A stretch of 64,000 nucleotides of DNA from an uncultured Bacteroidota bacterium (GTDB lineage: Bacteria > Bacteroidota > Ignavibacteria > Kryptoniales > JAKASW01), in the NCBI GenBank assembly GCA_963704305.1, contig OY969888.1, forward strand, positions 859,168-923,167, written 5' to 3'. Shown here in pieces: positions 9,160-55,118 of the stretch. A model generated the notes under the pieces. That model saw only the letters and a list, made by a program, of their open reading frames with translations. It did not search any database and was not told the origin of the DNA. The translations under genes were made by a program, and so were the position numbers. Position 1 is the first letter of the stretch. Each line of letters begins with the position of its first letter.

Positions 9160-9160
9160 G

Positions 9161-10284
9161 TTAAGCTAACATCTTTTCGTACGCTTTGACAGTCAACTCA
9201 GCTACCCTCGCTTGAGAGCACTCAGCCTCCATGCGTTTCTTTGCGTTACGACCCAGCTGAGCCGCAATCTCCGGATTACTCAGCATGTAGCGTATCTTTT
9301 CTGTCATGTCCGACACCTCGTTGGGATTAGTCAAGATACCGTCTTGCATATCTTCAATAATATATGGGATTCCTCCCACATTAGAGGCAATCACGGGTAC
9401 TGCTGCTGCCATTGCCTCCATTATTGCAATCGGTGCAGTTTCTTGAAAAGATGGCAGCACAAACATATAGCACTCTGACAATCTCGCATATATCTGTTCT
9501 CTGGTCTGACTGCCGTGAAACCACACTCGAGAGGCAATGTTGTTGCTCTCTGCTAAGCCTAGTATTTCTGAATAGTACTTTCTGTAACTGATTCTACCAC
9601 AGAAGTGAACTTCTAACGAGGGGAAGTCAGACATCAGCGGAATCAGAGCTTTCAACAAGCCTAGCTGGTTCTTCCTTTGCATAATCGACCCGACTACAAG
9701 CAATTGCATCCCACTCGGGTGGCGTTTTACCTGGAACATGAGAGGATCAACAGGATTGGGTATCTCAAACACGAGTTTGCATGGTGGTAAATCATTCGAT
9801 ATGTAAGGTGAGATTGAGATTATATTGCTCGCTTTCTTGAGAATGATCCTCCAGATGACGTATTCCAAGAACTTTGAGGCCCACCCGGGCCAGCCCACTT
9901 TTTGAGTTCGTGACCGATGTGCCCGTGCACAGTATATACCCACCTCCGTCCGGATAGGAGTGCCGCCAGGCCATAATCTACGCCACCCTGCGCATGCACG
10001 ATATTGGCATTTGTCGTTCTGACATAACGTAACAATTTCGAAGTGTCGCGAATAATGCGAGTGAGTAGTTTTGGCCTCGGCGACGAAAGAAAGAGAATTG
10101 TGATATTCCCGTCTTTCACTTCGTGATCTGACGCTATTCTTTTGGAAATTGTCGCGACGGAGTACTCAATATTCGTGTTCCCTCTTATTCCCTGAGCTAA
10201 GAAATACGCCGCGGCTTCCGGCCCAATTTCAACCGTATCGTTCGTGGGGTAAGAACTGAGGACTAATACGCTGAGTTTACGCAC
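9161..10284 (-). pseudogene. GT4 glycosyltransferase split by a 1-nt frameshift in a homopolymer (T5 at 9899-9903)
   Basis: ORF 9820..10284 ends '..VYTVHGHIGHELKK' and ORF 9161..9943 continues 'VGWPGWASKFLEYVIWRII..' in the -1 frame. Adding one A to CTCAAAAAGTGG restores a continuous GT4 protein. Confidence 0.7.
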
Positions 10285-10588
10285 GATTCACAAGCCGGCT
10301 CTTGGGTTCGATGCGCTTCCTTCTTTCAGGGGGAAGATCGCTTAAGCGATGCATTGGTTGACATGAATCCGCGAGAAAACTGAGTTACGCGGTGGTCATC
10401 AAAGACCACCGTATTCATGGATATTAGCTTGAGGCAGCATCAGTCTTTTTTATCATCGATGGACAAAAACAATCACGTATGTCATCGCAGCCAAAGAATC
10501 TAACGACTCAGGTCCGACATTGTCCAAATAGGAAAGTCTTACCCTACCAACCAATACGATCCTGCAGACGTGATCCCCTGCTCCGAAC

Positions 10589-11539
10589 CTAGGACAGTTT
10601 TGTTTGCGAAAAGAATTCAATCGCCTTTTGCAGGCCTTCAACAAAAGGATATTTAACTTGATAGTGCAAAAGATCTCGAGCTTTTTCAATAGACGCAAGC
10701 GAGTGCTTCACATCTCCAGGCCTTTGCTTTTGAATTATGGGCTGGACGTCTTTTCCCGTCAACTCATTGATCTTCTTTACCAAGTCAATAAGAGTTATTC
10801 GTTCTCCGCAGGCGATGTTAATAACACTACCGACAGCTTCAGCTGCATCACAGGCAAGAATGTTAGCCTCGACATTATTAGCAACATACGTAAAATCCCG
10901 GGACTGCAAACCATCTCCATAGATAACAGGCTGCTTCCCATTCGTTATGGCAGTAATAAATTTGGGAATAACAGCGCTATATTGAGATGACGGATCTTGA
11001 TTGGGACCAAAAACATTAAAGTATCGCAGGCACACTGTTTCCAAGCCGTATAAGTCGAAATACATTTGGCAATACCTTTCACCTGCATACTTTGTTAGCG
11101 CGTAAGGAGAAAGTGGACGAACGGCCATATCCTCTACTTTGGGCAGTTGCTCGCCGTCGCCATACACAGACGACGAGGAGGCATAAATCACCCTGCGGAC
11201 TTCAAATTCTTTGGCTGCTTCGAGCACATTTAGTGTGCCTACAATGTTTACTTCGTTGGTTGTAATGGGATCATTTATAGAACGGGGTACTGAAGGGAGT
11301 GCTCCCTGATGCAGAACAAAGTCAACGCCTTTAACTGCATCTCGGACAATATGGAAGCTCCGCAGGTCGCCCTCAATGAGATCAAAATTCTCTTCGTCTA
11401 TGAAGGGCTTGACATTCTCTCGTTTTCCCGTCGAAAAGTTATCAAGTACGCGCACCTTATGACCACGTCGCAACAATTCCGCCACTATGTTCGATCCGAT
11501 GAATCCTGCACCACCCGTCACTAGAAATGTCAAGCTCAT
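10589..11539 (-). CDS. SDR-family NAD-dependent nucleotide-sugar epimerase (WbpP/UDP-GlcNAc or UDP-GlcA 4-epimerase-like)
   Basis: 'FLVTGGAGFIGSNIV', 'LDNFSTGKRENV' and the 'YALTKYAGE' (YxxxK) catalytic motif. Confidence 0.85.
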   Translation of the reverse strand: MSLTFLVTGGAGFIGSNIVAELLRRGHKVRVLDNFSTGKRENVKPFIDEENFDLIEGDLRSFHIVRDAVKGVDFVLHQGALPSVPRSINDPITTNEVNIVGTLNVLEAAKEFEVRRVIYASSSSVYGDGEQLPKVEDMAVRPLSPYALTKYAGERYCQMYFDLYGLETVCLRYFNVFGPNQDPSSQYSAVIPKFITAITNGKQPVIYGDGLQSRDFTYVANNVEANILACDAAEAVGSVINIACGERITLIDLVKKINELTGKDVQPIIQKQRPGDVKHSLASIEKARDLLHYQVKYPFVEGLQKAIEFFSQTKLS

Positions 11540-25744: not shown

Positions 25745-25826
25745 GTGTTCTAAATTTCTGATCCCAAATTGCCAATTGATAATCTGATGTTTGGATGTTC
25801 GATCGCTGAATGTGTATCAGTCACGG

Positions 25827-30756: not shown

Positions 30757-32080
30757 ATGGAATATCCATGTTCTGGATCAGAAATCTATGTTTCCCTCGC
30801 TGTGTCAGCGGAATATTTTCGACCGCCTCCATGTCCAGCAAAATGTCGTCCCCCAATTTCACCATTAATCTCTTTCGAATATCGTTCCGGTCGTCGTCGC
30901 TCAACTTATCTTTCGGTATATAACGAAAGGTAACACGACCTTTCTCTTCCTGATAAAATTGGAACTGATTGAGATGATCAAAAATGTCATCATGCATATT
31001 GATGGCAGTCATTGAAATATACCTGCCCGCTCTGGTAACTATAAACTCTTGAAGTCTCCCTTCAATCCGATCCCATATTTGATACGGGCGTCCACAAGAA
31101 GAACATGCCCAACTTTTAAACACTGCGTAATCACGGGTCCTATACCGAATAAACGGCGTTGCATGCATGATGAATGAAGTGGCAACTATCTCTCCCATTT
31201 GCCCCAGCTTTGTAACGGGTTGCCCGTCCGGACTCAGTAACTCAGCATACCCATACTGAGGAAGCACATGGTATGTGTCATCGTATTCGCAAAATCCTGC
31301 CAGGACTGCAAGTTCATAGTGTCCATAGTGGCTGAACACACGAGCTCCAAAAACTTCTTTGAGCAAATCCTTCTGGTAGTCGTACAAGTTCTCGGATGCA
31401 CAAAGGATCCCTTTGATCTCCGGGAAATCCCTCTTGGTTTCTCTTAAGAACCGGGCAAATAAGTATCCTGAAGAGGGATAACACCTGACAAATTCCGGCA
31501 TAAATTTAAAAGCCTTCCTCCGAAACACTTCCATCGACTCTGGCGTCAAGTGGTAGGACGAGCATCGCATCTCGTTGAAACGGGGATAGAATTGCATACG
31601 TCTCTCATTGATGATCGGTATGCCTCTGAATACCAGCTGCCTCATCCCCTCCTTCCAGCCGACCCTGTAGTATTGATGCGCCTTCGACGCAAGCTCCCTT
31701 GAAAACGCTACCTTATCCTGGTAAAAACCAAACGGGATACCTGTACTTCCCCCGGTGGTAACGTACCGACTTCCACGACTTTTTAACGAAAAGGCATCCA
31801 GTGAATCTCTAATCATTTCCTTTTCTACCAGAGGAAACTTCCTGAGGTCCTCCGGTTCGCTGATCATCTGAGGTGTCACGCCATATTTGTCATACAAGCG
31901 ACGATAACCCTTGGTATTCCTGTACGCGTAGTCGACAATCCTTTTGATCTCAGACAGTTGGTATTGAACAATTTCCCCTGAGGACCAATTCTCCGCTTCT
32001 CTCAGGAAGTTAACCCACTGGATATACCATTTGTTCCTTAGGTCGGCATGAACTCTCATGTCCTGCCCGGTCCCGGTCAC
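30743..32080 (-). CDS. CapK-like adenylate-forming enzyme (phenylacetate-CoA ligase / F390 synthetase family)
   Basis: 'TTGGSTGIPFGF' AMP-binding core motif, about 445 aa, capsule-locus context. Confidence 0.8.
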   Translation of the reverse strand: MTGTGQDMRVHADLRNKWYIQWVNFLREAENWSSGEIVQYQLSEIKRIVDYAYRNTKGYRRLYDKYGVTPQMISEPEDLRKFPLVEKEMIRDSLDAFSLKSRGSRYVTTGGSTGIPFGFYQDKVAFSRELASKAHQYYRVGWKEGMRQLVFRGIPIINERRMQFYPRFNEMRCSSYHLTPESMEVFRRKAFKFMPEFVRCYPSSGYLFARFLRETKRDFPEIKGILCASENLYDYQKDLLKEVFGARVFSHYGHYELAVLAGFCEYDDTYHVLPQYGYAELLSPDGQPVTKLGQMGEIVATSFIMHATPFIRYRTRDYAVFKSWACSSCGRPYQIWDRIEGRLQEFIVTRAGRYISMTAINMHDDIFDHLNQFQFYQEEKGRVTFRYIPKDKLSDDDRNDIRKRLMVKLGDDILLDMEAVENIPLTQRGKHRFLIQNMDIPFGDN

Positions 32081-33075
32081 TTTTCAGTCGGCACGTATGA
32101 CATGGTCTTATTCTTCACCTGCTTTGCAACCCAGGAATAAGTAATAGTTAACCCATCAGTCAATTTCATAGATGGCGACCAACCCAGCTTATCCCTAATT
32201 AACCTGTTGTCTGAATTCCTGCCTCTAACACCTAGAGGTCCGGCGACATGATTTATTAATAACTTTTTCCCCGCGATGTTTATCACGATTTCAGCAAGTT
32301 GATCAATAGTTACCATTTCCTCCGAGCCGATGTTGACGGGCCCGATGAAATCCGATTCCATAAGCCGCCTGATCGCTTCCAGGCATTCGTTAACATACAA
32401 GAAAGAGCGTGTTTGTTTTCCGTCGCCCCATATTTCTATTTCTCCGCCGTCCTGCGCCTCTGCGACCTTTCTGCAAACTGCAGCAGGCGCTTTCTCTCGC
32501 CCGCCGACCCATGTCCCTTCCGGTCCAAATATATTATGAAACCTTGCTATCCGGACATTAAGTCCGTAGTTCCTGTGAAACGCCAAGTAAACATGCTCGC
32601 TGAACAATTTTTCCCAACCATATTCACTGTCTGGAGCAGCGGGGTACGCTGAATCTTCAGAGCACTTTGGGTTGTCGGGATCTTCCTGGTTATAGGCAGG
32701 GTACATGCAAGCAGAAGATGAGTAGAAGATCTTCTTCACCTTCACTCTGTTTGCTGCTTCAGCCATGTTTAAATTGATCATCGCAGAATTATGTATAATG
32801 TCGGCGTCGTTCTCCCCTGTGAAGACGAATCCTGCGCCGCCCATATCGGCTGCAAGCTGGTACACCTCATCAAAAGGCTGGTCAGTGATATTACGACAAA
32901 CAACTGGGTCCCTCAGATCTCCGATCACAAAATCATCTGCAACCGTGTTTGAAAACTCTGGATACTTGAGGTCGAGCCCTCTGACCCAGAAGCCTTGACC
33001 TTTTAATTTTTTTACTAAGTGGCTTCCAATGAAACCGCCGGCGCCGCATACTAGTGCCGTTTCCTTTATTGACAT
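32077..33075 (-). CDS. SDR-family NAD-dependent epimerase (GDP-mannose 3,5-epimerase-like)
   Basis: 'ALVCGAGGFIGSHLVKKLKGQGFWVRGLD', 'YGWEKLFSE' (YxxxK) and 'DFVIGDLRD'. Confidence 0.8.
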   Translation of the reverse strand: MSIKETALVCGAGGFIGSHLVKKLKGQGFWVRGLDLKYPEFSNTVADDFVIGDLRDPVVCRNITDQPFDEVYQLAADMGGAGFVFTGENDADIIHNSAMINLNMAEAANRVKVKKIFYSSSACMYPAYNQEDPDNPKCSEDSAYPAAPDSEYGWEKLFSEHVYLAFHRNYGLNVRIARFHNIFGPEGTWVGGREKAPAAVCRKVAEAQDGGEIEIWGDGKQTRSFLYVNECLEAIRRLMESDFIGPVNIGSEEMVTIDQLAEIVINIAGKKLLINHVAGPLGVRGRNSDNRLIRDKLGWSPSMKLTDGLTITYSWVAKQVKNKTMSYVPTEK

Positions 33076-33100: not shown

Positions 33101-33220
33101 AGTTAGTGATCGGTGAGGATAGCTCTTAGCTGATAGCTCATGGCTGATAGAAACAGTGAACAGTAATCAGTGATCTGTGATCGGTGAACAGTGAAGGGTG
33201 ATCTGTGATCTGTGACTGGA
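33101..33220. repeat. Heptanucleotide-periodic repeat tract (AGCTSAT units then CNGTGAW units)
   Basis: 33121-33148 reads AGCTCTT AGCTGAT AGCTCAT GGCTGAT. 33154-33216 reads CAGTGAA CAGTAAT CAGTGAT CTGTGAT CGGTGAA CAGTGAA GGGTGAT CTGTGAT CTGTGAC. Confidence 0.85.
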
Positions 33221-33222
33221 GT

Positions 33223-33708
33223 TCACTTTCTTTTGTTTTGCACCTTCGTCAGAAATTCCAGGTCATCAATGTCTTTGTGCCTTCCGAGAGCTTTCTTGTT
33301 CTTAACCAATTCATCAAGCCCGATGTAATAGATCGGCACCTCCATGCCCTGAAATGAAAACCTCTCATCCACCCTGTTTTCCCAAGCCTCCTTGAATCTG
33401 ACACCTTCAATTTCATTTATCAAATCTATCCTGTTGGGAGGCACGCCAAATTGAAAAATCATGCCGTCCTGCATCAGTTCGTCCTTGTTAGCCATACCTG
33501 GTATATCGTTCAGCCAAAACTGACTCAGAGCAGCATATAGCCGACTAACGTTTTCCTCAGACCCTTCATAAAAAATGTCAATATCTCCGGTCAATCTTGC
33601 GTGCCCGTAGTAGATGACAGCCTCACCTCCGACGATCACGTACCGCACTTCGCGGCTTGACAAAACCGAAAGGAACTCGGACACATCTTCGGAAAAAGGA
33701 ACTTTCAC
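33223..33708 (-). CDS. Small nucleotidyltransferase-fold protein (DUF6036-like; putative toxin/antitoxin-type module component)
   Basis: 'VRYVIVGGEAVIYYGHARLTGDIDIFY' is the G-x-..-D-x-D minimal NTase signature. 161 aa. Confidence 0.65.
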   Translation of the reverse strand: MKVPFSEDVSEFLSVLSSREVRYVIVGGEAVIYYGHARLTGDIDIFYEGSEENVSRLYAALSQFWLNDIPGMANKDELMQDGMIFQFGVPPNRIDLINEIEGVRFKEAWENRVDERFSFQGMEVPIYYIGLDELVKNKKALGRHKDIDDLEFLTKVQNKRK

Positions 33709-33896
33709 TTGTCCAACCGGAGTCGCTTACCGAATGCCCTGCTCTCGCGAACATCGGGATTATCGATCCCGAAGAAACGTTCCTTTAGGGCCTTGGCAAT
33801 TTCATGACGCTGGTCGCAGGTCATCTCTATCTGCTGCAGAAGATCCCAATCCTCCGCTTCCTTGTGCGTCCTGGCTTTGTTGACTATGCGGTCCAT
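33705..33896 (-). CDS. Small partner protein of the NTase-fold gene (63 aa)
   Basis: 4-nt overlap with the downstream NTase start (33705-33708). The charged helical sequence 'KEAEDWDLLQQIEMTCDQRHEIAKALKERFFG' is typical of small TA-type partners. Confidence 0.5.
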   Translation of the reverse strand: MDRIVNKARTHKEAEDWDLLQQIEMTCDQRHEIAKALKERFFGIDNPDVRESRAFGKRLRLDK

Positions 33897-33904
33897 CGTT
33901 GGGT

Positions 33905-34212
33905 TAGCTCGTAGCGGATAAAAGCAGTGAAAAGTGATTGATAATCAATGAACAATGATCAGTGATCAGTGAATGGTGATCGGTCCCGCCTTGCGGCATC
34001 CCGTAAATCCATTTTGAATAATGATGAACGGGATAAATAATTTTGACGGGATAATCAGTGAGCAGTATGAATAGCTTATAGCAACTTAGCTCATAGCTGA
34101 TAGGATGCAGGCTTGAAAGCCGGCAAGCGTGGATATCTGATGGCTCATGGCTCATAGCAAGGAGCAGTGTGCAATAATCAATGGACAGTTTGCGGTGAAT
34201 GGTGATATGAGC
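33905..34212. repeat. Heptanucleotide-periodic repeat tracts (GTGAW-type and AGCTSAT/GGCTCAT-type) around a short unique core
   Basis: For example CAGTGAA AAGTGAT TGATAAT CAATGAA CAATGAT CAGTGAT CAGTGAA TGGTGAT (33925-33980), AGCTCAT AGCTGAT (34089-34102) and TGGCTCA TGGCTCA (34141-34154). ORF 33904..34155 here is a repeat artefact. Confidence 0.8.
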
Positions 34213-34263
34213 AATTTTAGCGTGTCACCTAATTTGGCTGGAGCCACACATCCGCCTGCTTTC

Positions 34264-34632
34264 TTAAGGACGCCTTACTCCTGCTAGCATCATCCTCATC
34301 GGTTCGAGGGTTCTGCGAAACGGATCGAGCTTCAATCCAAGAATCTCAAGGGTAACCATACCGAGGAGCGATTCATCGCCTTCTTCACCGAGAATTACAG
34401 GAGTGTGCCCCTCTCCGCCAGCAATTCTAATAAAACACTCCGACACATTACGTTTGATCATAGAACCGTCCGCCAAGGTAAAATCCATCGTTCGCTCCGC
34501 AACCAGCCCCATGTTCTTCCAATGTTCCTGTGCAAGGAGTGAGTAGACAGCACCGCTGTCAACCAGAAACCGGACGGATCGTTCCACACCGTTGGGTCCT
34601 CTCACCATTCCATCGATAAAAGTCAATCCCAT
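34264..34632 (-). CDS. Retropepsin-like (clan AA) aspartic protease, stand-alone 122-aa form
   Basis: The 'FLVDSGAVYSLL' active-site D-S-G-A motif and the size match single-domain bacterial/archaeal retropepsin-like proteases. Confidence 0.75.
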   Translation of the reverse strand: MGLTFIDGMVRGPNGVERSVRFLVDSGAVYSLLAQEHWKNMGLVAERTMDFTLADGSMIKRNVSECFIRIAGGEGHTPVILGEEGDESLLGMVTLEILGLKLDPFRRTLEPMRMMLAGVRRP

Positions 34633-34775
34633 GACGCGTCCTCTCCTTCGTAAATCCTGACAGGGTCAAGCGCCTGCAATACCAAATGGACACGAGCTTC
34701 GCATTTGCGCCTCTGCTCCTGCCGGTAGATTTCGCTTCCTAACAATATACGTCGCACTCGTCTCAATTGGTAGAA

Positions 34776-34930
34776 CTGTAATCAGTGATTAGTAAAAGTG
34801 ATCTGTGAACAGTGAACGGTGATCGGCAAGCGGTGAGTAGTAAACAGTAAGCACTAGGCAGCAACCGGTAGACATTATGTTTTATCAAGTGTATTCCCTG
34901 CTGACAGCTCATTGCTAAAAGCTAATCGCC
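34776..34930. repeat. Heptanucleotide-periodic repeat tract
   Basis: CTGTAAT CAGTGAT TAGTAAA AGTGATC TGTGAAC AGTGAAC GGTGATC.., then AGCTCAT TGCTAAA AGCTAAT (34906-34926). Confidence 0.75.
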
Positions 34931-35105
34931 ATTCTTCCTACAGCTTCGCCATCTCACTCCCATTGCGCTTCGAAAAAGTGCTTTGCGCACATAGGAACTG
35001 TGCATCATAGAGCGAATACGCCTCTGGCTCGCGTAGTTAGAGAAATTTTTCTCCGCGAGCTTCACTATCCCGACAATTCGGGAGAGTGTGTCCCCCTCTC
35101 TATGA

Positions 35106-35723
35106 TTATGTTGCGGATGAAGTAAGGTTAACGGCAGTCATGCCTGAACGCGGTTTGCGCGCTGCCGTGCTGCGGCTAATTAGCCTTACTGCACCTGCTG
35201 GTACCTTTATACTAAGTAGTTTGTCCAGCCCATCGACACTGACAACGAAATTCTTGCCATTAACTAACTCGACAACCTTGCCACGCAATCCCATCAAGGG
35301 ACCGGCGACCACTTCTGCTTCGTAACCGGAATAATCACCCTCCAGCACATCGATATCATCAGAATGATACTCAATCAATCTCTTAACATCTTCAATTTGG
35401 TTATCAGGTACAATACTTGGCTTACCATTTGAGCTGACAAATTTTACAAAGCCATCTATTGTGTAAATACTCTGGAACTCGCTCTGCAAAGTTCTCGCAA
35501 AAACATAACATGAAAACAGCGGAGTCTCGATCCACTTTTTCCGATCGCTCCACTGTCTTATTTCTTTTCTCAGGGGAAGATAGGATTCGATACCGCGCTC
35601 GGTCAAATCCAGACAGACGCATTTCTCATGACGGGCTTTGACATAGATTACCCGCCAAACTTTCTTCTCAAAATCTTTAGGACCTTCAGCCCCCCCAGGC
35701 AAGGCGCATTGCAAGTCGTTCAA
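35106..35723 (-). CDS. UpxY-family (NusG-like) transcription antiterminator
   Basis: 'WRVIYVKARHEKCVCLDLTERGIESYLPLRKEIRQWSDRKKWIETPLFSCYVFAR' is an NGN domain. A C-terminal KOW-like 'GLRGKVVELVNGKNFVVSV' follows. It has a TTG start and the exact start is uncertain. Confidence 0.8.
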   Translation of the reverse strand: MNDLQCALPGGAEGPKDFEKKVWRVIYVKARHEKCVCLDLTERGIESYLPLRKEIRQWSDRKKWIETPLFSCYVFARTLQSEFQSIYTIDGFVKFVSSNGKPSIVPDNQIEDVKRLIEYHSDDIDVLEGDYSGYEAEVVAGPLMGLRGKVVELVNGKNFVVSVDGLDKLLSIKVPAGAVRLISRSTAARKPRSGMTAVNLTSSAT

Positions 35724-36154
35724 ACGATATCTCCACTTTAGGTCTACGGTAAAAAAGCGTCGTCACCATCTGCGTTCAACATACAAACAGATTTCTTACG
35801 ACAAAAGGTTCCGCGGACCGTTCCACATTTCATGAGACGATAAGACCTTATCATGGATCATGTTAGATCCCTTCTCGTCTCAAACAACAACGAAAGAATT
35901 GGTTCGGAGGAAATGGCTAGGTGCCAGTGCTCGAAATTAAGAAACTACTCCCGCTCATTAAACCGGGAATTTCCTCCTTCTGTTCGCCCTCTCGGAATAA
36001 AGTTAAGTCTGCCTAAGGAAGAAATCAAGCGTCTGAATTTAAAGTTATGTTAAGAATTTAGGATGTGACAATGTTCACACGCAGAATGCGGCGAAAAATG
36101 ATGGATTTGTATTGGGGCGATGGGGGAAAAGGGATCAGGGAGCAGTTAGGAGGA

Positions 36155-36812
36155 GATTTACAATTGACGATTGCCGATTGATGATTGAACGGTGAAGAGT
36201 GATTTGTGGGAAGGAGAGTTGGGAGGAGAGCTGGGAAGAGATTTGGGAAGAGATTTACGATTGTCAATTGCCGATTGACGAATGAACGGTGAGCAGTTGG
36301 AAGGAGAGTTGGGAGGAGAATTGGGAGGAGATTTACGATTGACAATTGCCAATTGACGAATGAACGGTGAGCAGTTGGAAGGAAAGTTGGGAGGAGAATT
36401 GGGAAGAGATTTACGATTGTCAATTGCCGATTGACGAATGAACGGTGAGCAGTTGGAAGGAAAGTTGTGAGGAGAATTGGGAAGAGATTTACGATTGACA
36501 ATTGAAGATTGACGAATGAACGGTGAGCAGTTGGAAGGAGAGTTGGGAGGAGAATTGGGAGGAGATTTACGATTGACAATTGCCGATTGACGAATGAACG
36601 GTGAGGGGTAGGAAGGAGAGTTGGGAGGAGAGTTGAGGAGAGATTTGCGATTTACAATTGCCAATTGATGATTGAACGTCGAGAGAGCAGTGAACGGTTG
36701 GGAAGAGATTTACGATTGAGGATTGCCAATTGACGAATAAACGGTGAGAGAGCAGTGAACGGTTGGGAAGAGATTTACGATTGACAATTGCCAATTGATG
36801 ATTGAACGATGC
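36155..36812. repeat. Tandem repeat array: 1x97, 5x78, 2x65 bp units plus a 41-bp partial unit
   Basis: The unit start GATTTAC recurs at 36155, 36252, 36330, 36408, 36486, 36564, 36642, 36707 and 36772. The unit is GATTTACGATTGACAATTGCCGATTGACGAATGAACGGTGAGCAGTTGGAAGGAGAGTTGGGAGGAGAATTGGGAGGA, itself built of heptamers. Confidence 0.9.
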
Positions 36813-36877
36813 CCTATGAAAAAGAAAATCCATTTACACGAATTTTCTTACAGACTCGTAAATATTGGAACGGACTC

Positions 36878-37228
36878 TCATCTCCTCTCAGCGGTTTTGT
36901 GTGAGGCCGTAAAAATGGCCAGGAGTTCTTTAGCTTCCGAGATAATTGGCTTTACGACTTGGTCGTTTGCGATTTCAGATTCTAAGATCAACTCGAGCCA
37001 ATAAATAGTCTCACTTGCCTCCTTCTGGACTATCCCGATCTTATGAACGAAGTCCGCCCTCGACTCTCCTCGGGATGCTTCACAATAGTTCGCCCCCACC
37101 GATGTCCCAGACTTCAAGACCTGGTACCCAAGGACATCGGAGACTTTACTCTTTGGAAGTGAGTTGACAAGCTTTATGACGTCAAGCGCGAACGCTTTCG
37201 TCCGCTTCTCCAAATCCTCTCTCTTCAT
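36878..37228 (-). CDS. Four-helix-bundle protein (TIGR02436 / '23S rRNA intervening sequence protein' family)
   Basis: 'LGYQVLKSGTSVGANYCEASRGESRADFVHKIGIVQKEASETIYWLELI' matches the family core (GxQLxRSxxSIGANxxEA .. KE..ET.YWL). Confidence 0.85.
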   Translation of the reverse strand: MKREDLEKRTKAFALDVIKLVNSLPKSKVSDVLGYQVLKSGTSVGANYCEASRGESRADFVHKIGIVQKEASETIYWLELILESEIANDQVVKPIISEAKELLAIFTASHKTAERR

Positions 37229-37235
37229 TAGTCAG

Positions 37236-37266
37236 ATCATCAATTGTCAATCGGCATTTACAAATC
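37236..37266. repeat. Inverted partial copy of the 36155-36812 repeat unit
   Basis: The reverse complement GATTTGTAAATGCCGATTGACAATTGATGAT shares GATTGACAATTG and ATTGATGAT with the terminal unit at 36772-36812. Confidence 0.5.
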
Positions 37267-37268
37267 CT

Positions 37269-38711
37269 TCATCGCCTCCCTATTCCATAATACTCAAAGC
37301 CGAGCTCTCTCACCTTTTCCGGATTGTAGATGTTGCGTCCGTCAAAGATCACATGCCCCCGCATTAACCTTTTCATCCTATCGTAATCCGGCTCTCTGAA
37401 TTCCTGCCACTCAGTTACCAGTATCAGCGCATCCGCATCTTTGAGTGCATCATACTGGTCTTTAACAAATCTCAACTTCCCTTCTGTGACTTTTCCCTTC
37501 ACGCCTTTTCCTTTCAGGTTTACCTTCCGCCCTGTCAGGCTCTCCTTCTTCTCCTCAAATAATCTTCTTGCGTTATCCATTGCCACGGGGTCAAATGCGG
37601 AAACCTCCGCACCATCCCTCAAAAGGCTGTCGATGACCACGAGCGAAGGCGCCTCACGAATATCGTCAGTCTTCGGCTTGAAGGAGAGGCCCCACAACGC
37701 AAATTTCCGCCCGGCGAGTTTGCCCGCGAAGTGTGCTCGAATCTTCTCGGGAAGGACGCCCTTTTGCCTTTCGTTAACCCTGTTCACCGCGCTGACAAGC
37801 GAAGTCTCCATCGAAACTTCCTCTCCCATCTTGATGAGTGCCTTAACGTCTTTCGGGAAACAACTTCCTCCCCAGCCGATTCCCGGGAAAAGGAATTTCT
37901 GTCCAATCCTGTTGTCGTAGCCCATCGCCATCCTTACCTTCTCGACATCCACGCCTAATTTTTCACAGAGAAGTGCAATCTCATTCATGAACGAAATTCT
38001 CGTCGCGAGGAAAGCGTTAGCCGCATACTTCACCATCTCGGCGTCCCGAGTTTGCATGAGAAGAATCCTGGGGACGGTTCTGACAAACGGCTGGTACAAC
38101 TCTTGAAGGATGTCCGCAGCTTCGTGATCTTCAATGCCGATAACGACCCTGTCGGGAAACAAGAATTCTTGAATAGCACTCCCCTCTTTCAGAAACTCCG
38201 GGTTTGATGCCACCTGGACTCTCGCTCGCGGATACTTCTTGAATATCTCCCTCAACTTGTCCCCGGTCCCCACAGGAACCGTACTCTTTGTCACGACTAA
38301 CTTATACACCTCCGCTTCGTTGCCACCCATCGCTTCACCGGGCCTCCGTGATTTCCGTTCCCCGCTTGAAGATCGGACATTTAATATCTGTCCTATCCTT
38401 TCCGCAGTTTCCATGACGTATCTCAAGTCCGCACTGCCGTCTGCACCCGGAGGCGTCGGCAGGCAGAGAAAGATCACCTTCGAACTTTCTACGGCATCCT
38501 GCAGAGAGGTAGTGAAGAATAACCGTTTTGCTCTTTGATTCTTCTCAATCAGTGCATCGAGCCCGGGCTCGTATATAGGAGATTTGCCTTTCTTAAGGAG
38601 CGAGATCTTTCTTGAATCGACATCCATGCAGACAACCTGATTGCCGGTTTCTGCGAAACATGTTCCGGTAACAAGACCTACATAGCCGGTTCCGATGACT
38701 GAGATGTTCAT
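37269..38711 (-). CDS. ugd: UDP-glucose 6-dehydrogenase
   Basis: 'MNISVIGTGYVGLVTGTCFAETGNQVVCMDVD', 'GWGGSCFPKDV' and 'PEFLKEGSAI'. It is about 40 aa longer than usual because of two low-complexity insertions. Confidence 0.9.
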   Translation of the reverse strand: MNISVIGTGYVGLVTGTCFAETGNQVVCMDVDSRKISLLKKGKSPIYEPGLDALIEKNQRAKRLFFTTSLQDAVESSKVIFLCLPTPPGADGSADLRYVMETAERIGQILNVRSSSGERKSRRPGEAMGGNEAEVYKLVVTKSTVPVGTGDKLREIFKKYPRARVQVASNPEFLKEGSAIQEFLFPDRVVIGIEDHEAADILQELYQPFVRTVPRILLMQTRDAEMVKYAANAFLATRISFMNEIALLCEKLGVDVEKVRMAMGYDNRIGQKFLFPGIGWGGSCFPKDVKALIKMGEEVSMETSLVSAVNRVNERQKGVLPEKIRAHFAGKLAGRKFALWGLSFKPKTDDIREAPSLVVIDSLLRDGAEVSAFDPVAMDNARRLFEEKKESLTGRKVNLKGKGVKGKVTEGKLRFVKDQYDALKDADALILVTEWQEFREPDYDRMKRLMRGHVIFDGRNIYNPEKVRELGFEYYGIGRR

Positions 38712-38743
38712 TTGATTAATTTCCTATTTAAGTTGTGAGAGGA

Positions 38744-38852
38744 GCGGTGATCAGTGATTGGTGAACAGTGAACGGTGGTCGGCGAACTGCTCACAGTTCA
38801 AAGTTTACTGTTTACTCGTAACTATTCACAAATCACAGTTCACGCTTCACGA
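38744..38852. repeat. Heptanucleotide-periodic tract with dyad symmetry
   Basis: The left arm GGTGATC AGTGATT GGTGAAC AGTGAAC GGTGGTC switches at 38785 to the complementary orientation CTCACAG TTCAAAG TTTACTG TTTACTC .. TCACAGT TCACGCT TCAC. Confidence 0.75.
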
Positions 38853-38977: not shown

Positions 38978-39010
38978 AACAACAAAAAGCCCCTCAGAAT
39001 CTCGAGGGGC
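38978..39010 (-). terminator. Rho-independent terminator after the 483-aa T9SS gene
   Basis: The minus strand reads GCCCCTC GAGATTCT GAGGGGC followed by TTTTTGTTGTT, about 30 nt after the stop at 39042. Confidence 0.7.
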
Positions 39011-39041
39011 CTTTGTGAACAATTATGTTCTTTGGAGTCTG

Positions 39042-44690: not shown

Positions 44691-46436
44691 TGTACCTCCA
44701 TTGTGTTTACTTTTCTTTCAAATGATAATGCAAACAAACGGGAGAAGTCAAAGAGAATCGCATTACCCTCGCTTGCCCGTCCTCTATGTTTACTAGCATT
44801 TCTTTTGCTTCCGAAACAAAACTCGCCGTAACCAAATATCATCTTACTCCAAACGAAGATTTCTCTATGTCAAAAGCGCACATTAATTCAAACACGCTCC
44901 GCAATCCTGACAACAATACCGGCACAAGTGCTTCACCACTTGCTCAAGTTGTCGAGCACAACATTCAGTATTTTCATTACCTATCGACGTGGAAATATTA
45001 ATCAGTGTGGCGCACATAGTCAAGAGCATTTTGAACTTTTTTTTGATTTTTTCGCGTGCCTGTCTGCGGTGACGACATACGTCTATTTCGGATATATTGA
45101 CAGAAAACTTTAACATATGAAACGCCATAGTGCAAGCGTCGCCAGAGGTGATGTGACAGTGCGCACAGAGGGGAATTTCGGCGGGCTATCCATTGTTCAA
45201 GAGGCGGTGCGGGAAACGGGACCGACCGACAACGTCCTTCGAAGGCAGCTAAGCAAGAATACTTTGTGGCGCAGCCGTCGCGGTGCGCGGCTGGCAATGA
45301 TGTTCAGCCGGTACCGTTCATCCGCGCGGCGGCATTCGGGTTGTAACCACGCCACGTCGGAAATCTCCTGACGGCCGAGATCAATGAAATCAGATACATG
45401 GACGGAACTCGCAGGACGATGCGGGTCGCCCTTCGACGAATGAATCCTTCATTGGCAAATCATGTTCTCAAAGCGAGGTATGACAGGAGACAGTTGCGCT
45501 CGCATCCGCACAAGATGGTACAGCAAGATCCCACGTCCCGCACTGTACCATGATACCAAAGCCAGGAAGTTGAACAGCATCTCACATAGCATTCCCGTTA
45601 ATCATGAGAAGTTGCACGCAGAAGCTCGCGCCGCGAAAATGAATCCTTATTCTTACTACGGAAATCTCTGAGCCCCAACTCTTGAAATACGGAGAGGTCG
45701 TTATGATGAGAATTAATTGGCGTCTAATTGTAGCGCCATTCATTCCGACTTCGTTCAATCAGAATTGAACGCGGGTTCTTATACCAAAGTTAGCTTTTAG
45801 CCCAACATGCGTCGGGGCATACTCGTTGCAGAAGAAAAGAGGACAACTGAGGGATAGGGGAATTCCGTCGCCGTTGCGTCCCGCCGTGCAGTTACTTGAC
45901 ATGGGGAGATGCCCACTGTTTACACAGGGAGACAATCGGAATACTAAGGAAGGAAGCTAAGGCTTGATATTCAATAATCTGGCAGTGACTCACTTTTAAT
46001 TCTAATGTCGGTACATTAAGAAGGTCTTGCTTTCTTTAATGTGTTAGAACCGTAACTTACGGTTGAAAGATGAACATCATTGAAAAAGGGAGACCTTATG
46101 ATGAAAGATAGCAAAAGAGAGTGGTACAAGAACTATGTGGCGATCGATTGGTCACAAGAGGTGGTGTTTGTACGAAGGATGATGACACAGGCGGGACGAG
46201 TGGAAAAATCTGTATGGACTACCGCTCAACCATCATTTGACGAAACTCATAGAAGATTTCTCCTCTCAAGGATCGTCTCCGCCAGAGGCTGATGCGCCTG
46301 TGGCGCAGAAATGACATTCTCTTTGTTTTCATGCAGCCTCATAAAAAAGAGGGTGAAGATTCACGAATGCTATTCCGGTGGACTGTACCCCCTCTTGATG
46401 GGACCGTTCCAAAATGGACATTCCGGCGAAACTTGT

Positions 46437-46519
46437 CCCAGCATGATCTTAGCTGGGAGCCGGAATCCAGTTTTTGGTTCTGCATGCAAGCTGGAGTCTA
46501 CCCCGTGCTTGACACGGGG
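46437..46519. repeat. REP-like pair of short GC-rich hairpins just downstream of wzc
   Basis: TCCCAGC-N9-GCTGGGA (46437-46459) and CCCCGTG-N5-CACGGGG (46501-46519). Translated frames give the '..AGIQ..' and '..LDTG..AGMT..' strings typical of palindromic extragenic elements. There is a single copy in the window. Confidence 0.3.
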
Positions 46520-46590
46520 CTGGCATGACAAGCGTCATTTTATGTGAATGCTGAAACTGAGTCACTACCAAAAATCTACTGGCCGCGTAC

Positions 46591-48996: not shown

Positions 48997-49389
48997 TGAC
49001 TTGTCTCTCTGTTTTGTTCCCGGAAAAAGTTACTTTATCGAATGACATCTGTCAAGTGAACGAGAACACACGAATAAGTCCGGAATCTTGCCCACGCGCT
49101 GCGGTCGTGAGCCAAACTCTCATCTTGCGGATGAGGGTCCTCTATTCTTCGACAGCATAACATCATCGCTCGAGTGAAAGTTCAAGCGCAACCACGTCGG
49201 CGTCATGCAGCTATCAATTCTTATTATCGGATCAATTCGCCCTATTTCAACTCTATCGCCTCCCTCGATAGGGCTCGGCAGCAAAAATTCGCCGCCTGTG
49301 ACTTTCGCGCGCCTGGTCGCGAACTACGCAACCAAGCTCTGCTTGTCGTGAGGCTGGTCCCGCATCGCGGGACGACCCTCTGCTTGTCG

Positions 49390-49461
49390 TGAGGCTGGCA
49401 GGGATCGAACCTGCGACCCTCTGCTTAAAAGGCAGATGCTCTACCACTGAGCTACAGCCCC
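49390..49461 (-). tRNA. tRNA-Lys (anticodon UUU)
   Basis: A hand-folded cloverleaf: GGGGCTG TA GCTC AGTGGTA GAGC A TCTGC CTTTTAA GCAGA GGGTC GCAGG TTCGATC CCTGC CAGCCTC A. There is one G-U in the acceptor stem and CCA is not encoded. Confidence 0.9.
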
Positions 49462-49480: not shown

Positions 49481-49551
49481 CGACAGGGCCGTGATCTCAA
49501 CTGCGGCCCCCCCGCTAAAAGCGGGGTGCTCTACCACTGAGCTACAGCCCC
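49481..49551 (-). pseudogene. Decayed tandem copy of tRNA-Lys(UUU) (tRNA-like, acceptor and T-arm do not fold)
   Basis: The 5' 24 nt are identical to the functional copy (49528-49551 = 49438-49461). The anticodon arm CCCCG CTTTTAG CGGGG is intact with compensatory changes. However, the T-loop is TGAGATC and the 3' acceptor CCTGTCG cannot pair with GGGGCTG. Confidence 0.45.
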
Positions 49552-50523: not shown

Positions 50524-50620
50524 GTGGAATGTTGGATTGGTGGATTGATGGATTGGAACAAACCTTGACACGTTTGCACTTTGTGACTTTGCTGCTCAGT
50601 GCCTTTGTCCCTCAAGTGAT
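50524..50620. repeat. Heptamer-type low-complexity tract in a convergent intergenic region
   Basis: TGGAATG TTGGATT GGTGGAT TGATGGA TTGGAAC, then CACTTTGTGAC / CAGTGCCTTTGTC motifs related to the tract at 54965-55115. Confidence 0.4.
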
Positions 50621-53543: not shown

Positions 53544-54959
53544 TTATTTCCTAATTCCGAACAGCGTCCACGGATAAGAGAGCATGTCGTGCAAATATCT
53601 TCCCTGCCACTTGAAATTAGGATGTGCCTGAAAAAATTTCGACGCGATGAAACTCTCGCCGCACGGGTGTCCCATGTGCACCCAGAATTCCATCCTGCCA
53701 GCCAGGTCACCAGTTGTCACCTTGCCCTGCACTGCTCCAGCAGGAGTGTACGGAGCCCAACCCCATTGCGGAATCCCGCGCAGGTCCTCGTCGACGTGGC
53801 CGCACAGAACGCAGGCACCAACCGATTCCTTGCCGCGAACCTGATCAAAGTGGTCGCTCATGAATTGCTCCGCGAGTTCAGCATTAATTCTTCCCTTGTA
53901 TTGCTGCATCAACTTTTCCCAGCGGGACTTTCGATCGTTCATGGAACTGTAAATGTTACTGACCTTAAAAGTGGTTTCCTCCTCGATCGTCTTTTTGTCG
54001 CTCGGGAAGTTCGAGCCGACGTAACAGCCGTCTTTCGTCCGCCACACTCTATGATTCTTCAAACCGAGTTCGAGACGCGCAATCTCGTTCGTCCTGGTGT
54101 CTCCGATAAGCCAATCGTTCGCATAGCCGCCGTTATTTCCAGTTGTCATGATCCTGATAAAATCATCGATGCTGTTGGAATACTGTTCCGCCTCTCTCGC
54201 ACGCATGAACTCCGGTATTCCGTCTTCATCGAACCCTTTGAATTGTGCTATCGTCGTTTCCGTGATCAGGATGCCGGCGCTGTTCTCTACGAAATCATCT
54301 CCGCTGTGAATGAAGCCGGGGAAAGTGTCCATTAATATCCGGTTCCCTTTTTCCGGAACGATGTCCTCTATGACATTCCACCTTTCTCCGATAATGTAGT
54401 CGACCCAGGAATTATGTGCCATCACGATCTTCCCATCGGAGGTGTAACTTCCCGTCGCGATGAACGCGCTGCAATTCCCCGGTGCGCGATTATCACCTGC
54501 ACCTTTCCTCATTCTCTCGGCAAGCGCCGGCAAATAGTATTGTGCGAGCTCCATCCATCCGTTCAGCGCGGTGATATCGATCTTATCGTACATCTTTCCT
54601 CGTGCTCGCAAGCCCTCAGCAATTCCCTCAATCTCATTCCTGTATTCGTCACTCAGCTTGGGCCAGAACATTCTCTCGGCTGCGTCCCTGTAGAACTTCC
54701 AATCTCTGTGAGTCGTCCGTCCAAGGTAGAACTTCATCATCTTGATGGCATCGTCGATCTCAGGGGCAAGCAAATAGCCGTGCTGGTATCCTATCTCATT
54801 CGGTGAGCCCTCCACATGAATGTAAATCCATCCCGACCTGTCCTCACGGGAAGCTTTGGCGAGTCTCGGGTCTGTACCACCATATGCCGCCGCGAATAGA
54901 AGCAGGTAAAGAGTGAACAGTGAACAGTAGAATGTATGTTTAGATTTCATAATTCTCAT
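53544..54959 (-). CDS. Secreted Ntn-hydrolase, phospholipase-B-like / C45-like family
   Basis: Signal peptide, then 'GNCSAFIATGSYTSDGKIVMAHNSW' (nucleophile Cys context) and 'FPGFIHSGDDFVENSAGILITETT'. Confidence 0.65.
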   Translation of the reverse strand: MRIMKSKHTFYCSLFTLYLLLFAAAYGGTDPRLAKASREDRSGWIYIHVEGSPNEIGYQHGYLLAPEIDDAIKMMKFYLGRTTHRDWKFYRDAAERMFWPKLSDEYRNEIEGIAEGLRARGKMYDKIDITALNGWMELAQYYLPALAERMRKGAGDNRAPGNCSAFIATGSYTSDGKIVMAHNSWVDYIIGERWNVIEDIVPEKGNRILMDTFPGFIHSGDDFVENSAGILITETTIAQFKGFDEDGIPEFMRAREAEQYSNSIDDFIRIMTTGNNGGYANDWLIGDTRTNEIARLELGLKNHRVWRTKDGCYVGSNFPSDKKTIEEETTFKVSNIYSSMNDRKSRWEKLMQQYKGRINAELAEQFMSDHFDQVRGKESVGACVLCGHVDEDLRGIPQWGWAPYTPAGAVQGKVTTGDLAGRMEFWVHMGHPCGESFIASKFFQAHPNFKWQGRYLHDMLSYPWTLFGIRK

Positions 54960-54964
54960 CCTTT

Positions 54965-55115
54965 AAGAAAGGCACAAAGAAACAGAGGCACTGAGACACA
55001 AAGTCCAACTAAATTTAATCTGCTCATAAGATTTAGCGGTCAGCTCTCAGGAGTCAGCCATAAGCTAATAGCTGAAAGTTGCTTTGTGCCATTACCACTC
55101 TGTGCCTGTGTGACT
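54965..55115. repeat. Heptamer-type tract with inverted GGCACAAAG / CTTTGTGCC arms around TCAGCTC/TAAGCTA/ATAGCTG units
   Basis: Left arm: AAAGGCACAAAGAAACAGAGGCACTGAGACACAAAG. Right arm: CTTTGTGCCATTACCACTCTGTGCCTGTGTGAC. Centre: TCAGCTC TCAGGAG TCAGCCA TAAGCTA ATAGCTG. Confidence 0.55.
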
Positions 55116-55118
55116 GTC

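Follow-up and report, generated by a model that had tools for sequence, protein, structure and literature searches.

[quoted passage not shown] Degenerate tandem 7-nt units in intergenic DNA, often just upstream of start codons, are also described as the cyanobacterial STRR, as the TAACTGA repeats of Beggiatoaceae, Cyanobacteria and Bacteroidetes (MacGregor 2015), and as long simple-sequence repeats (SSRs) (Mrazek 2007); several unit families are mixed in one spacer, the taxonomic distribution is patchy, and the function is unknown. Integrons hold arrays of small, co-oriented, promoterless cassettes rich in toxin-antitoxin genes, separated by imperfect palindromes (attC sites) whose structure rather than sequence is conserved, and in the UpxY-controlled capsular polysaccharide loci of Bacteroidota, a UpxY-family NusG paralogue with a long conserved leader stands at the head of a long glycan operon.

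Here, we analysed a 64,000-nt stretch of contig OY969888.1 (hereafter the window), in which small accessory genes at the head of a glycan operon are separated by runs of 7-base repeats. The preliminary description of this region, namely heptanucleotide tracts bracketing small genes between ugd and the first biosynthetic gene, was confirmed. Tandem Repeats Finder reported period-7 arrays at 33119-33215, 34140-34155, 34797-34822, 36155-36188 (and inside every unit of the tandem array described below), 38745-38782 and 54912-54928. At a threshold of at least 67% lag-p self-identity over 42 nt, only period 7 (5 regions) and periods 12 and 14 passed, and all five period-7 regions lie in 33146-38852. 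GTGAnnnGTGA occurs 23 times on both strands, compared to 2.3 +/- 1.4 in dinucleotide shuffles. Tract bases cover 774 of 9451 non-coding positions and 1 of 54549 coding positions. A uniform spread of the tracts over intergenic DNA had been named in advance as evidence against cassette boundaries; within the window, 5 of 6 intergenic gaps in 33.1-39.0 kb have a tract, whereas 0 of 20 gaps elsewhere do (Fisher p = 9e-5), although the source genome as a whole was not surveyed. All of the gene calls hold, and all the genes are on the minus strand, so that the RNA-sense units are TCACTGA, TCACCGA and TTCACTG.

The tracts are of two structural kinds, which had not been separated previously: inverted pairs or hairpins, as in the ugd leader and the arms around the four-helix-bundle (4HB) gene, and unidirectional TCAC/AGCT "junction modules" in front of the other cassettes. 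The co-directional unit starts after an intrinsic terminator of the upstream cohesin/T9SS gene (38985-39014, minus strand; 12-bp stem with 6 GC pairs and a T-rich tail), which is the only strong terminator in 32.9-39.2 kb. The ugd leader holds an ORF-less heptamer hairpin (38745-38852), in which, in RNA sense, the GUGAA-type arm (38805-38852) comes first and the UUCAC-type arm (38745-38782) second; its RNA fold has an energy of -33.9 kcal/mol (z = -3.3, 1 of 200 shuffles as stable). It is followed by ugd (UDP-glucose 6-dehydrogenase, 37269-38711; PF03721, PF00984 and PF03720).

For the 4HB gene (36878-37228, 116 aa), membership in PF05635 / TIGR02436, the S23p or "IVS protein" family, is supported by 65.9 bits against a Pfam cutoff of 33.8, by 83.8 bits against 24 for TIGR02436, and by a match of the family profile to PDB 2RLD at E = 6e-27. 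The upstream arm of the IR around this gene (37236-37285; GATTGAC/AATTGAT heptamers) overlaps the last codons of ugd. Downstream, the previously noted 660-bp array is real (36140-36810): it comprises about 8 copies of a unit made of the downstream IR arm (GTCAATCG... type), a short TCAC segment and CT-rich 12-mers, and was resolved as 78-nt units x5.9 at 36217-36678 (91% matches) and 65-nt units x2.7 at 36632-36808. Every unit is complementary to the upstream arm (31-46 nt, 72-81% complementary), and the ORF is enclosed by a long-range stem in both the MFE and the centroid fold.

Next in the direction of transcription is the conserved leader and probable promoter region of the UpxY operon (35724-36105), which aligns with the related locus L002 over about 400 nt with long identical blocks, and the gene for a UpxY-family NusG-like antiterminator (35106-35723; NF033644, 124.5 bits against a cutoff of 100; PF02357). 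An AGCT-type left arm (34905-34935; RNA sense GAUUAGCUUUUAGCAAUGAGCUGUCAGC) lies just after the stretch downstream of UpxY that is conserved with L002; in L002, the same position starts an AGCTSAT inverted repeat that encloses a 4HB gene. A unidirectional TCAC-type heptamer tract (34776-34853), unstructured as RNA (z = +0.5), precedes the cassette 34264-34766, which holds a 47-aa ORF (34623-34766) and a retropepsin-like aspartic protease (34264-34632; PF13975, 32 bits against 28.2; PF13650; TIGR03698 at E = 8e-10, below its cutoff). The double junction at 33905-34212 consists of 34040-34212, with a TCAC tract, two AGCT-type right arms and a small hairpin, and 33905-33990, with a TCAC tract and an AGCT remnant, and is paralogous to the module in front of the epimerase. 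The cassette 33223-33896 holds an upstream 63-aa ORF (33705-33896) overlapping a DUF6036 nucleotidyltransferase (NTase) gene (33223-33708; PF19502 and PF09970). The junction module at 33101-33222 has nine TCAC-type heptamers (33152-33216), then AGCT-type heptamers (33119-33150), then an AGGAG and the ATG, and is unstructured as RNA (z = -0.8). The first biosynthetic gene, an NAD-dependent epimerase/dehydratase (32077-33075), is followed by the glycan cluster (GT1, GT2, GT9, GT11, wzm, wzt and Wzy_C). Accessory cassettes and heptamer tracts between UpxY and the first biosynthetic gene are not part of the described architecture of UpxY-controlled loci.

The enrichment of tracts next to the gene families of this region had been proposed as a test, and for the 4HB family the link is strong and general. 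In 80 metagenome loci chosen only by 4HB protein similarity, period-7 tracts occur in 64% of upstream and 60% of downstream flanks, compared to 0-4% for periods 5, 6, 8 and 9, and the median IR score is 18.75, compared to 9.0 for controls. Tract coverage is 30.5% within 100 nt of the gene and about 1% beyond 200 nt. Complementary arms, with an IR score of at least 30, surround the gene in 43 of 69 of those loci, with 1332 of 1544 positions Watson-Crick paired. Arm similarity tracks protein similarity (Spearman 0.48 and 0.35, Mantel p <= 0.001). The cassettes tend to point the same way as their neighbours (101 of 129 neighbouring genes on the same strand), which are ABC2_membrane, ABC_tran, WecG, SLBB, epimerases and PIN. 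All 10 finished plasmid loci that were examined (Nostoc, Anabaena, Planktothrix, Chlorohelix, Treponema and others) have period-7 tracts on both sides, and 7 of 10 have an IR score above 30 (3 of the first four and 4 of the next six); in Nostoc flagelliforme, a perfect 35-nt TAATTCG IR abuts the ATG and the stop codon.

Conversely, the specific association of the tracts with small, mobile-looking genes was not supported as stated, and the proposal that the tracts mark cassettes inserted or exchanged by an unnamed mechanism, or have an RNA-level function, was only partly supported. Heptamer tracts in general are not specific to small, mobile-looking genes: the genes next to 120 GTGA-type tracts from many phyla are ordinary, with a median length of 301 aa. 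The same two-gene NTase module (55-68 aa plus 146-163 aa) occurs in the loci L005, L209, L213, L214 and L216 in different contexts, but carries tracts only in this lineage, with none next to an IS3 element and only a weak one in a nuo operon; the retropepsin family was not tested. The absence of cassette variation among relatives had also been named as a refuting outcome, whereas syntenic sites show cassette presence, absence and replacement. After ugd, the window and L209 carry related 4HB genes, L002 carries an unrelated 4HB pseudogene with different arms, and L005 has only a tract. After UpxY, the window has the retropepsin and NTase cassettes where L002 has a 4HB. L002 has 2 copies of the array unit.

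The comparison with STRR repeats, made in the preliminary description, is apt in kind, and the RNA-sense units here (TCACTGA, TTACTGA) are one base away from TAACTGA. However, no STRR or TAACTGA unit occurs in tandem here, and the tracts are organised as complementary pairs around genes, a feature not reported in those papers. The closest described element is instead the ORF-bearing 23S rRNA IVS, which had not been named. In contrast to the IVS, the host here is a protein-coding operon: there is no rRNA in the window, and 0 of 20 related loci hit any Rfam family. The arms are built entirely of degenerate heptamers, and the downstream arm is amplified about 8-fold.

We consider it moderately likely that the 5.7 kb at the head of this Wzm/Wzt-type polysaccharide cluster is a co-directional stretch in which small accessory cassettes have accumulated, with degenerate heptanucleotide tracts as spacers, and that its best-defined unit, the 4HB gene enclosed by a heptamer-built IR, is the same element as the ORF-bearing IVS of 23S rRNA, but located between genes of an operon. 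The analysis itself shows that the arms are complementary and enclose the ORF; that this arrangement is the norm for the family in metagenomes and in finished genomes of at least four phyla; that the arm sequence differs between loci but stays complementary and tracks the protein; that the cassettes point the same way as their neighbours and favour glycan and defence operons, CRISPR-Cas operons also being among the hosts; and that relatives differ in which cassette occupies a given site. The mechanism, whether an RNA stem cut by RNase III or recombination in the DNA, is inferred. In this view, the arms would pair in the polycistronic transcript into a stem of about 30-45 bp that RNase III cuts, as demonstrated for the Coxiella IVS, which would release the cassette RNA and limit harm to the host operon. 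RNase III cleavage is untested outside rRNA, and mismatches in the stems show no excess of G:U over A:C (41 against 49), so that nothing points to selection in the sense RNA rather than in DNA. The repeats would also supply portable homology, or a hairpin target, through which cassettes are gained, replaced and lost; no recombinase or transposase lies in the 64 kb and no empty site with exact junctions was recovered, and mobility therefore rests on comparison only. The absence of 7-nt indels between contigs that are 98-100% identical also counts against this view. The retropepsin and NTase cassettes would lie inside a second (AGCT-type) IR whose right arm, together with a TCAC tract, was copied at each insertion, giving the three paralogous junction modules. 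This account is a reconstruction, because the tracts next to the retropepsin, NTase and epimerase genes are unidirectional and unstructured, and their only complementary partners are 1.8-5.6 kb away.

Three other explanations appear unlikely, but were not excluded. The tracts may be neutral by-products of replication slippage that build up wherever intergenic DNA is long and unconstrained, coinciding with cassettes only because both are tolerated in accessory regions. GTGA-period-7 tracts are indeed true tandem repeats in very diverse phyla and lie next to ordinary genes, unit sequences are not conserved across loci, and Mrazek et al. found heptanucleotides to be the commonest long SSR unit (cited in PMC4679880). 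However, slippage does not explain the complementary arms on the two sides of one gene family in 62% of loci, the sharp fall of tract density beyond 100 nt from the gene, the co-variation of arms with the protein, or the presence of GAA/TTC in 75% of consensus units against 21% by chance, and no 7-nt indels separate contigs that are 98-100% identical. An integron-like system, in which the heptamer palindromes act as structure-specific recombination sites, as attC hairpins do, for a recombinase encoded elsewhere in the genome that inserts and excises promoterless cassettes, would fit the small, co-oriented, apparently promoterless cassettes, which include toxin-antitoxin-like modules, the conservation of structure rather than sequence, the existence of ORF-less hairpins, the variable content at fixed sites, and L213, which looks like a toxin-antitoxin cassette array. 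Against it, no integrase or transposase was found among about 50 ORFs of the window, attC R''/R' core pairs occur at the chance level (2 against 1 expected), the arms flank the ORF instead of forming one site downstream of it, and the cassettes sit, scattered, in ordinary operons in many phyla, with no common neighbour.

Alternatively, the repeats may be binding sites that set the expression of the gene that follows, for the pentameric 4HB protein itself (in autoregulation or protection), for a host RNA-binding factor (S1, Csp or CsrA-like), as proposed for TAACTGA repeats, or, for the C-rich, G-poor sense-strand tracts, for Rho working with UpxY antitermination. The tracts end a few to about 40 nt upstream of start codons, as in Beggiatoaceae (PMC4679880), the arms co-vary with the protein, a GAA phase is conserved, S23p and Avd homologues form pentamers (PMC4990558; 2RLD holds 5 chains), and the unidirectional tracts, unstructured and G-poor, lie in an operon governed by a UpxY antiterminator. 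No binding data exist, however; run lengths of 2-5 units show no mode at 5, unit sequences are too varied for a single host factor, the "purine-rich arm first" pattern is not universal, and binding alone does not explain the inverted symmetry.

Outside the 5.7-kb region, two gaps had been described as holding related heptamer tracts. The tract at 50524-50556 has period 8, not 7, and 54965-55116 (minus strand) is a separate ORF-less hairpin, with GGCACAAAG-type arms and AGCT-type heptamers in the loop (RNA fold z = -2.2). The earlier assignment of the genome as Ignavibacteria-like is roughly right, since the closest named homologues come from Candidatus Kryptoniota and Ignavibacteriaceae MAGs. 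In addition, ugd has two insert loops that the L209 orthologue lacks.

All genes in 32-39 kb lie on the minus strand. In the direction of transcription, a cohesin/T9SS gene, which carries the only strong intrinsic terminator of the region (39014-38985), is followed by ugd (38711-37269), a 116-aa four-helix-bundle (4HB) gene (37228-36878), a tandem array (36810-36140), a UpxY-family antiterminator (35723-35106; NF033644, 124.5 bits against a cutoff of 100), a 47-aa ORF plus a retropepsin-like protease (34766-34264), a 63-aa ORF overlapping a DUF6036 nucleotidyltransferase (NTase; 33896-33223), and an epimerase (33075-32077). Behind the epimerase lies a typical glycan cluster with GT1, GT2, GT9 and GT11 glycosyltransferases, wzm, wzt and a Wzy_C protein. 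The 4HB protein scored above the curated cutoffs of both family models, PF05635 (65.9 bits against 33.8) and TIGR02436 (83.8 bits against 24), which describe the 23S rRNA IVS protein (S23p, Avd-like) family, and the family profile hit PDB 2RLD at E = 6e-27. An exact look-up of the 4HB protein of the window returned no record.

The heptanucleotide tracts reported between these genes in the preliminary description were confirmed, and the periodicity is real and specific. Only period 7, and its relatives 12 and 14, reached 67% self-identity over 42 nt, and all five period-7 stretches lie in 33146-38852. GTGAnnnGTGA occurs 23 times, against 2.3 +/- 1.4 in shuffles, so that the tracts qualify as long simple-sequence repeats (5-11 nt units), although the units are degenerate, with 70-81% matches. 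Tracts cover 774 of 9451 non-coding bases and 1 of 54549 coding bases, and five of the six gaps in the region carry a tract, against none of 20 gaps elsewhere in the window (Fisher p = 9e-5). Of the two further intergenic tracts that had been described as related, however, that at 50524 has period 8, and the 54965-55116 element is a hairpin. In addition, the wzm-wzt gap (25745-25826) holds degenerate CAAT-type heptamers, but has no hairpin (z = +1.0) and no 4HB gene. Elsewhere in the window, a 1.9-kb stretch with no ORF longer than 99 aa (44691-46590), which may hold decayed genes, lies between a dockerin/T9SS protein gene and a Wzz/tyrosine-kinase gene.

The tracts are of two kinds, the first of which is inverted. 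The ugd leader (38852-38745) reads, in RNA sense, as a GUGAA-type arm followed by a UUCAC-type arm, and folds into a long hairpin (z = -3.3). The 4HB gene is enclosed by an inverted repeat, whose upstream arm (37285-37236) overlaps the end of ugd and is complementary (31-46 nt, 72-81%) to a segment present in every unit of the downstream array. Both the MFE and the centroid fold place the ORF in the loop of this long-range stem. The 660-bp array is therefore an eight-fold tandem amplification of the downstream arm of the cassette, together with a short TCAC segment and CT-rich 12-mers, and it lies upstream of a UpxY leader of about 400 nt that is conserved in a relative.

The second kind is unidirectional. 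In front of the 47-aa ORF, the 63-aa ORF and the epimerase lie paralogous junction modules, each of which, as shown by their alignment, is a TCAC-type tract followed by AGCT-type heptamers. As RNA, these modules are unstructured (z between -0.8 and +0.5). Their only complementary partners lie far upstream, at 38805-38852 for the TCAC type and at 34905-34935 for the AGCT type.

Comparison with relatives showed cassette turnover. The UpxY protein has an identical copy on the 4.53-Mb contig of the source genome, and it has relatives. The closest named homologues of the NTase come from Candidatus Kryptoniota and Ignavibacteriaceae MAGs. At the site after ugd, four states were found. The window has a 4HB gene with ATTGA-type arms. 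L209, a 3.6-Mb contig, has a 75%-identical 4HB gene between ugd and an epimerase, with short ATTGA-type flanks. L002, a contig whose UpxY is 81% identical, has an unrelated 4HB gene (no BLASTP alignment), which is framed by GTGAAC/GTTTAC arms and split into a pseudogene by a REP-like insertion. L005, a further relative, has only an ATTGA-type tract and no 4HB gene. The insertion in L002 belongs to a family of CTACGG/CCGTAG (REP-like) palindromes, found in L002 (7000-7180) and L005 (10880-10955, 13751-13858 and 18751-18857). In addition, the ugd of the window, L002 and L005 has two insert loops (residues about 113-141 and 400-424 in the window) that the L209 orthologue lacks. In L005 the DNA of the first loop (7532-7646) consists of heptamer tracts (GAACGGC x3, TTTCGGA/ATTCGGA) read in frame; tracts can therefore invade coding sequence.

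At the site after UpxY, the sequence is conserved between the window and L002 up to ...GAGATGGCGAAGCTGTAG. Beyond that point L002 carries a 4HB gene inside an AGCTSAT inverted repeat, whereas the window carries the AGCT left arm and then the retropepsin and NTase cassettes, each followed by a copy of the right arm. In L005, a 64-nt, 86% complementary inverted repeat (8848-8911 and 11148-11211) brackets the whole UpxY gene with its leader (2.2 kb), which might be an invertible segment of the kind that controls capsule loci. DUF6036 modules about 41% identical to that of the window occupy other slots in glycan loci, between an acetyltransferase and an aminotransferase gene in L209, and before an epimerase in L005. 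It had been specified in advance that the idea of cassette boundaries would fail if relatives showed the same genes without tracts and no variation in cassette presence or absence; the relatives examined do not fulfil this condition.

Enrichment of tracts next to 4HB, NTase-fold and retropepsin-like genes had likewise been put forward as a test, and for the 4HB genes the link is general. Metagenome contigs were scanned with a profile of 40 homologues, and 80 loci were kept, chosen only by protein similarity of 45-64%. Period-7 tracts occur in 64% of upstream and 60% of downstream 200-nt flanks, whereas periods 5, 6, 8 and 9 give 0-4%. Tract coverage is 30.5% within 100 nt of the gene, 4.8% at 101-200 nt, and about 1% further out. 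The upstream flank is complementary to the downstream flank, with a median score of 18.75 against 9.0 when flanks of different loci are paired, and 43 of 69 loci have a clear inverted repeat, with 86% Watson-Crick pairs. The units differ between loci (GAATTGC, GAAAGTA, GAAGGCT, GGAAAGC and others), but 75% contain GAA/TTC, against 21% by chance, and arm similarity follows protein similarity (Spearman 0.48 and 0.35, Mantel p <= 0.001). Of the neighbouring genes, 101 of 129 are on the same strand, and the commonest neighbour families are ABC-2 permease (8), ABC ATPase (7), WecG (5), PIN (4), SLBB and epimerases. At least six cassettes sit exactly between wzm and wzt. None of 20 loci tested lies in rRNA. 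Most contigs carrying close homologues of the 4HB and DUF6036 proteins are only about 1-3 kb long, and in 19 of the 80 4HB loci the contig ends within 150 nt of the gene, which fits assembly breaks at the flanking repeats.

The rule also holds in finished sequences. A tblastn search found the family on 31 plasmids, mostly of Nostoc and other cyanobacteria, and also of Chlorohelix, Bernardetia and Treponema. All ten loci examined have period-7 tracts on both sides, and seven of the ten have a clear inverted repeat (score above 30; 3 of the first four, 4 of the next six). Nostoc punctiforme pNPUN01 has a 44-nt arm of GGAGGTC units, Nostoc flagelliforme has a perfect 35-nt TAATTCG repeat touching the ATG and the stop codon, and Gloeocapsa has TTTTAGA units abutting both codons. 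Culturable carriers include N. punctiforme PCC 73102 (pNPUN01, NPUN_RS34315), Anabaena cylindrica PCC 7122 (ANACY_RS28330) and Bacteroides thetaiotaomicron (the 2RLD gene). In these plasmids the cassettes are wedged inside defence operons, namely DISARM (drmD-MmeI), DUF1156-Swt1 HEPN (twice), cas2-cas1, upstream of cas1, and helicase-N6 methylase. That the purine-rich arm is always upstream held on average in the metagenome set, but was contradicted by three plasmid loci.

Conversely, heptamer tracts as such are a broad phenomenon. A scan of species-representative genomes with four copies of GTGAN3 yielded at least 120 loci, a sample that did not extend to the source genome. These loci are nearly all genuine heptamer repeats from many phyla, and their flanking genes are ordinary, with a median length of 301 aa and families such as AAA, TPR and HSP70; PF05635 accounts for 2 of 146. 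Among 62 other ORFs bracketed by tracts, PF05635 is the only recurrent family (4 of 62), and the rest are single housekeeping genes. Both counts come from Pfam and have no matched control, because a narrow HMM built from the 40-homologue alignment missed divergent 4HB genes that Pfam detects. The specific, family-wide association is with PF05635.

The DUF6036 genes form a toxin-antitoxin-like two-gene module, in which a 55-68 aa gene overlaps a 146-163 aa DUF6036 gene, in the window, L209 and three further loci in varied contexts (L213, L214 and L216); in L005 the DUF6036 gene instead overlaps a 151-aa HicA-like ORF. Toxicity was not assayed. The module is tract-flanked in Kryptoniota-like genomes. 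In the Kryptoniota genome L213, a run of toxin-antitoxin-like cassettes (3456-10492), comprising DUF2204/AbiEii, DUF6036, MNT/HepT, HicB and PIN, lies downstream of ugd-OmpA-epimerase, and the cassettes are separated by long (NNNGAAC)n tracts. In contrast, the module has only a weak tract in a nuo (NADH dehydrogenase) operon, where it sits between nuoE and what looks like a fragmented nuoF (L214, 4814-5480), and none beside an IS3 element. The retropepsin family was not included in these comparisons.

The Coxiella burnetii IVS is described as a 428-nt selfish element in helix 45 of 23S rRNA, which carries an S23p (PF05635) ORF and terminal inverted repeats that form a 28-bp stem cut by RNase III (PMC4990558). 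Two to three tandem GACAGAT heptamers lie just upstream of its start codon, and their number varies between strains. That anatomy matches the cassette described here in every respect except its host, although excision of the cassette RNA by RNase III was not measured. The defining location in helix 25 or 45 of a 23S rRNA gene does not apply, because the flanking genes are ugd and UpxY, and Rfam searches found only two tRNAs in the window and nothing in 32.9-39.2 kb at E <= 1. The two tRNA genes lie at 49390-49461 and 49484-49551, and a 41-nt x2.2 tandem repeat (49337-49426) overlaps the first, which suggests a partial duplication. In the full texts searched for the protein family names, which do not include subscription journals or database comments, the Coxiella paper reports heptamers inside the rRNA IVS, and no description of heptamer-built inverted repeats around these genes outside rRNA was found.

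Intergenic TAACTGA repeats just upstream of start codons have been described in Beggiatoaceae, Cyanobacteria and five Bacteroidetes (MacGregor, 2015; PMC4679880), where translational control or rearrangement was suggested and a distribution like that of XisH/XisI was noted. The N. punctiforme cassette sits next to xisH and xisI. The RNA-sense units of the window, TCACTGA and TTACTGA, are one base away from TAACTGA. However, no tandem pair of TAACTGA or of the STRR units CCCCAGT, TTGGTCA and CAACAGT was found in any rotation on either strand of the window, and tandem GACAGAT units were also absent.

The analysis itself establishes that the arms are complementary and enclose the ORF, that the cassettes are co-oriented with their hosts, that arms and protein co-vary, and that sites turn over between relatives. 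That the arms pair in the operon transcript and are cut by RNase III is instead inferred from the Coxiella precedent, and that the repeats mediate gain and loss of cassettes is inferred from comparison. The preliminary interpretation of the tracts as boundaries of exchangeable cassettes is supported in part. The element is an IVS-like, heptamer-armed 4HB cassette in a glycan operon, accompanied by two toxin-antitoxin-like cassettes in a second repeat-framed slot; it differs from the rRNA IVS in its host, and its interest comes mainly from the general rule that it exposed.

Against an RNA-only reading, stem mismatches show no excess of G:U over A:C (41 against 49), a comparison that does not inform on whether selection acts on RNA or DNA. 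Against hypermutable slippage, contigs 98-100% identical show no 7-nt indels, and the contingency-locus reading was dropped. The idea that the pentameric protein matches five subunits to five seven-base units is unsupported, because run lengths are 2-5 units with no mode at 5. The analysis offers no explanation for period 7, or for the role of the amplified arm array and of the unidirectional modules.

Integron features were also examined. No integrase, recombinase or transposase domain was found in about 50 ORFs of the window, the rest of the genome not having been surveyed for these or for tracts. attC R'' (RYYYAAC) and R' (GTTRRRY) cores 35-125 nt apart gave 2 matches on both strands, the same palindromic site, against 1.0 expected from shuffles, which is chance level. 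The window shows neither of the two integron features tested, an IntI-type integrase next to the array and attC sites. Inverted arms such as those of a MITE or another non-autonomous TIR element are present, but the copies differ in unit sequence even within the window, the arm boundaries are too fuzzy to score target-site duplications, and copies were not counted genome-wide, so that these observations speak neither for nor against membership of that class.

A broader reading is compatible with the evidence but appears unlikely. In this view, heptamer-armed inverted repeats define a widespread, so far unnamed class of non-autonomous gene cassette, of which the 23S rRNA IVS is only the first-seen special case. 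The PF05635 pentamer would be the own factor of the cassette, recognising its heptamer arms, and the co-variation of arms and protein points that way. The cassette would spread into hairpin loops of operon transcripts or of DNA, and a substantial share of the long-unexplained bacterial heptanucleotide repeats (STRR and TAACTGA types) would be the footprints or arms of such cassettes.

Two old puzzles meet here, namely what the sporadic heptanucleotide repeats of cyanobacteria, Bacteroidota and sulfur bacteria are for, and what the IVS protein family does and why it turns up in rRNA, CRISPR-cas, defence and glycan loci. The rule that PF05635 genes come wrapped in heptamer-built inverted repeats, which was found in metagenomes and in finished genomes of four phyla, gives a concrete, testable element with clear boundaries. 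It predicts RNase III-type processing sites inside operons, it may explain why contigs carrying these genes are so short, and it offers cultured model organisms (Nostoc, Anabaena) for mobility, RNA processing and protein-repeat binding.
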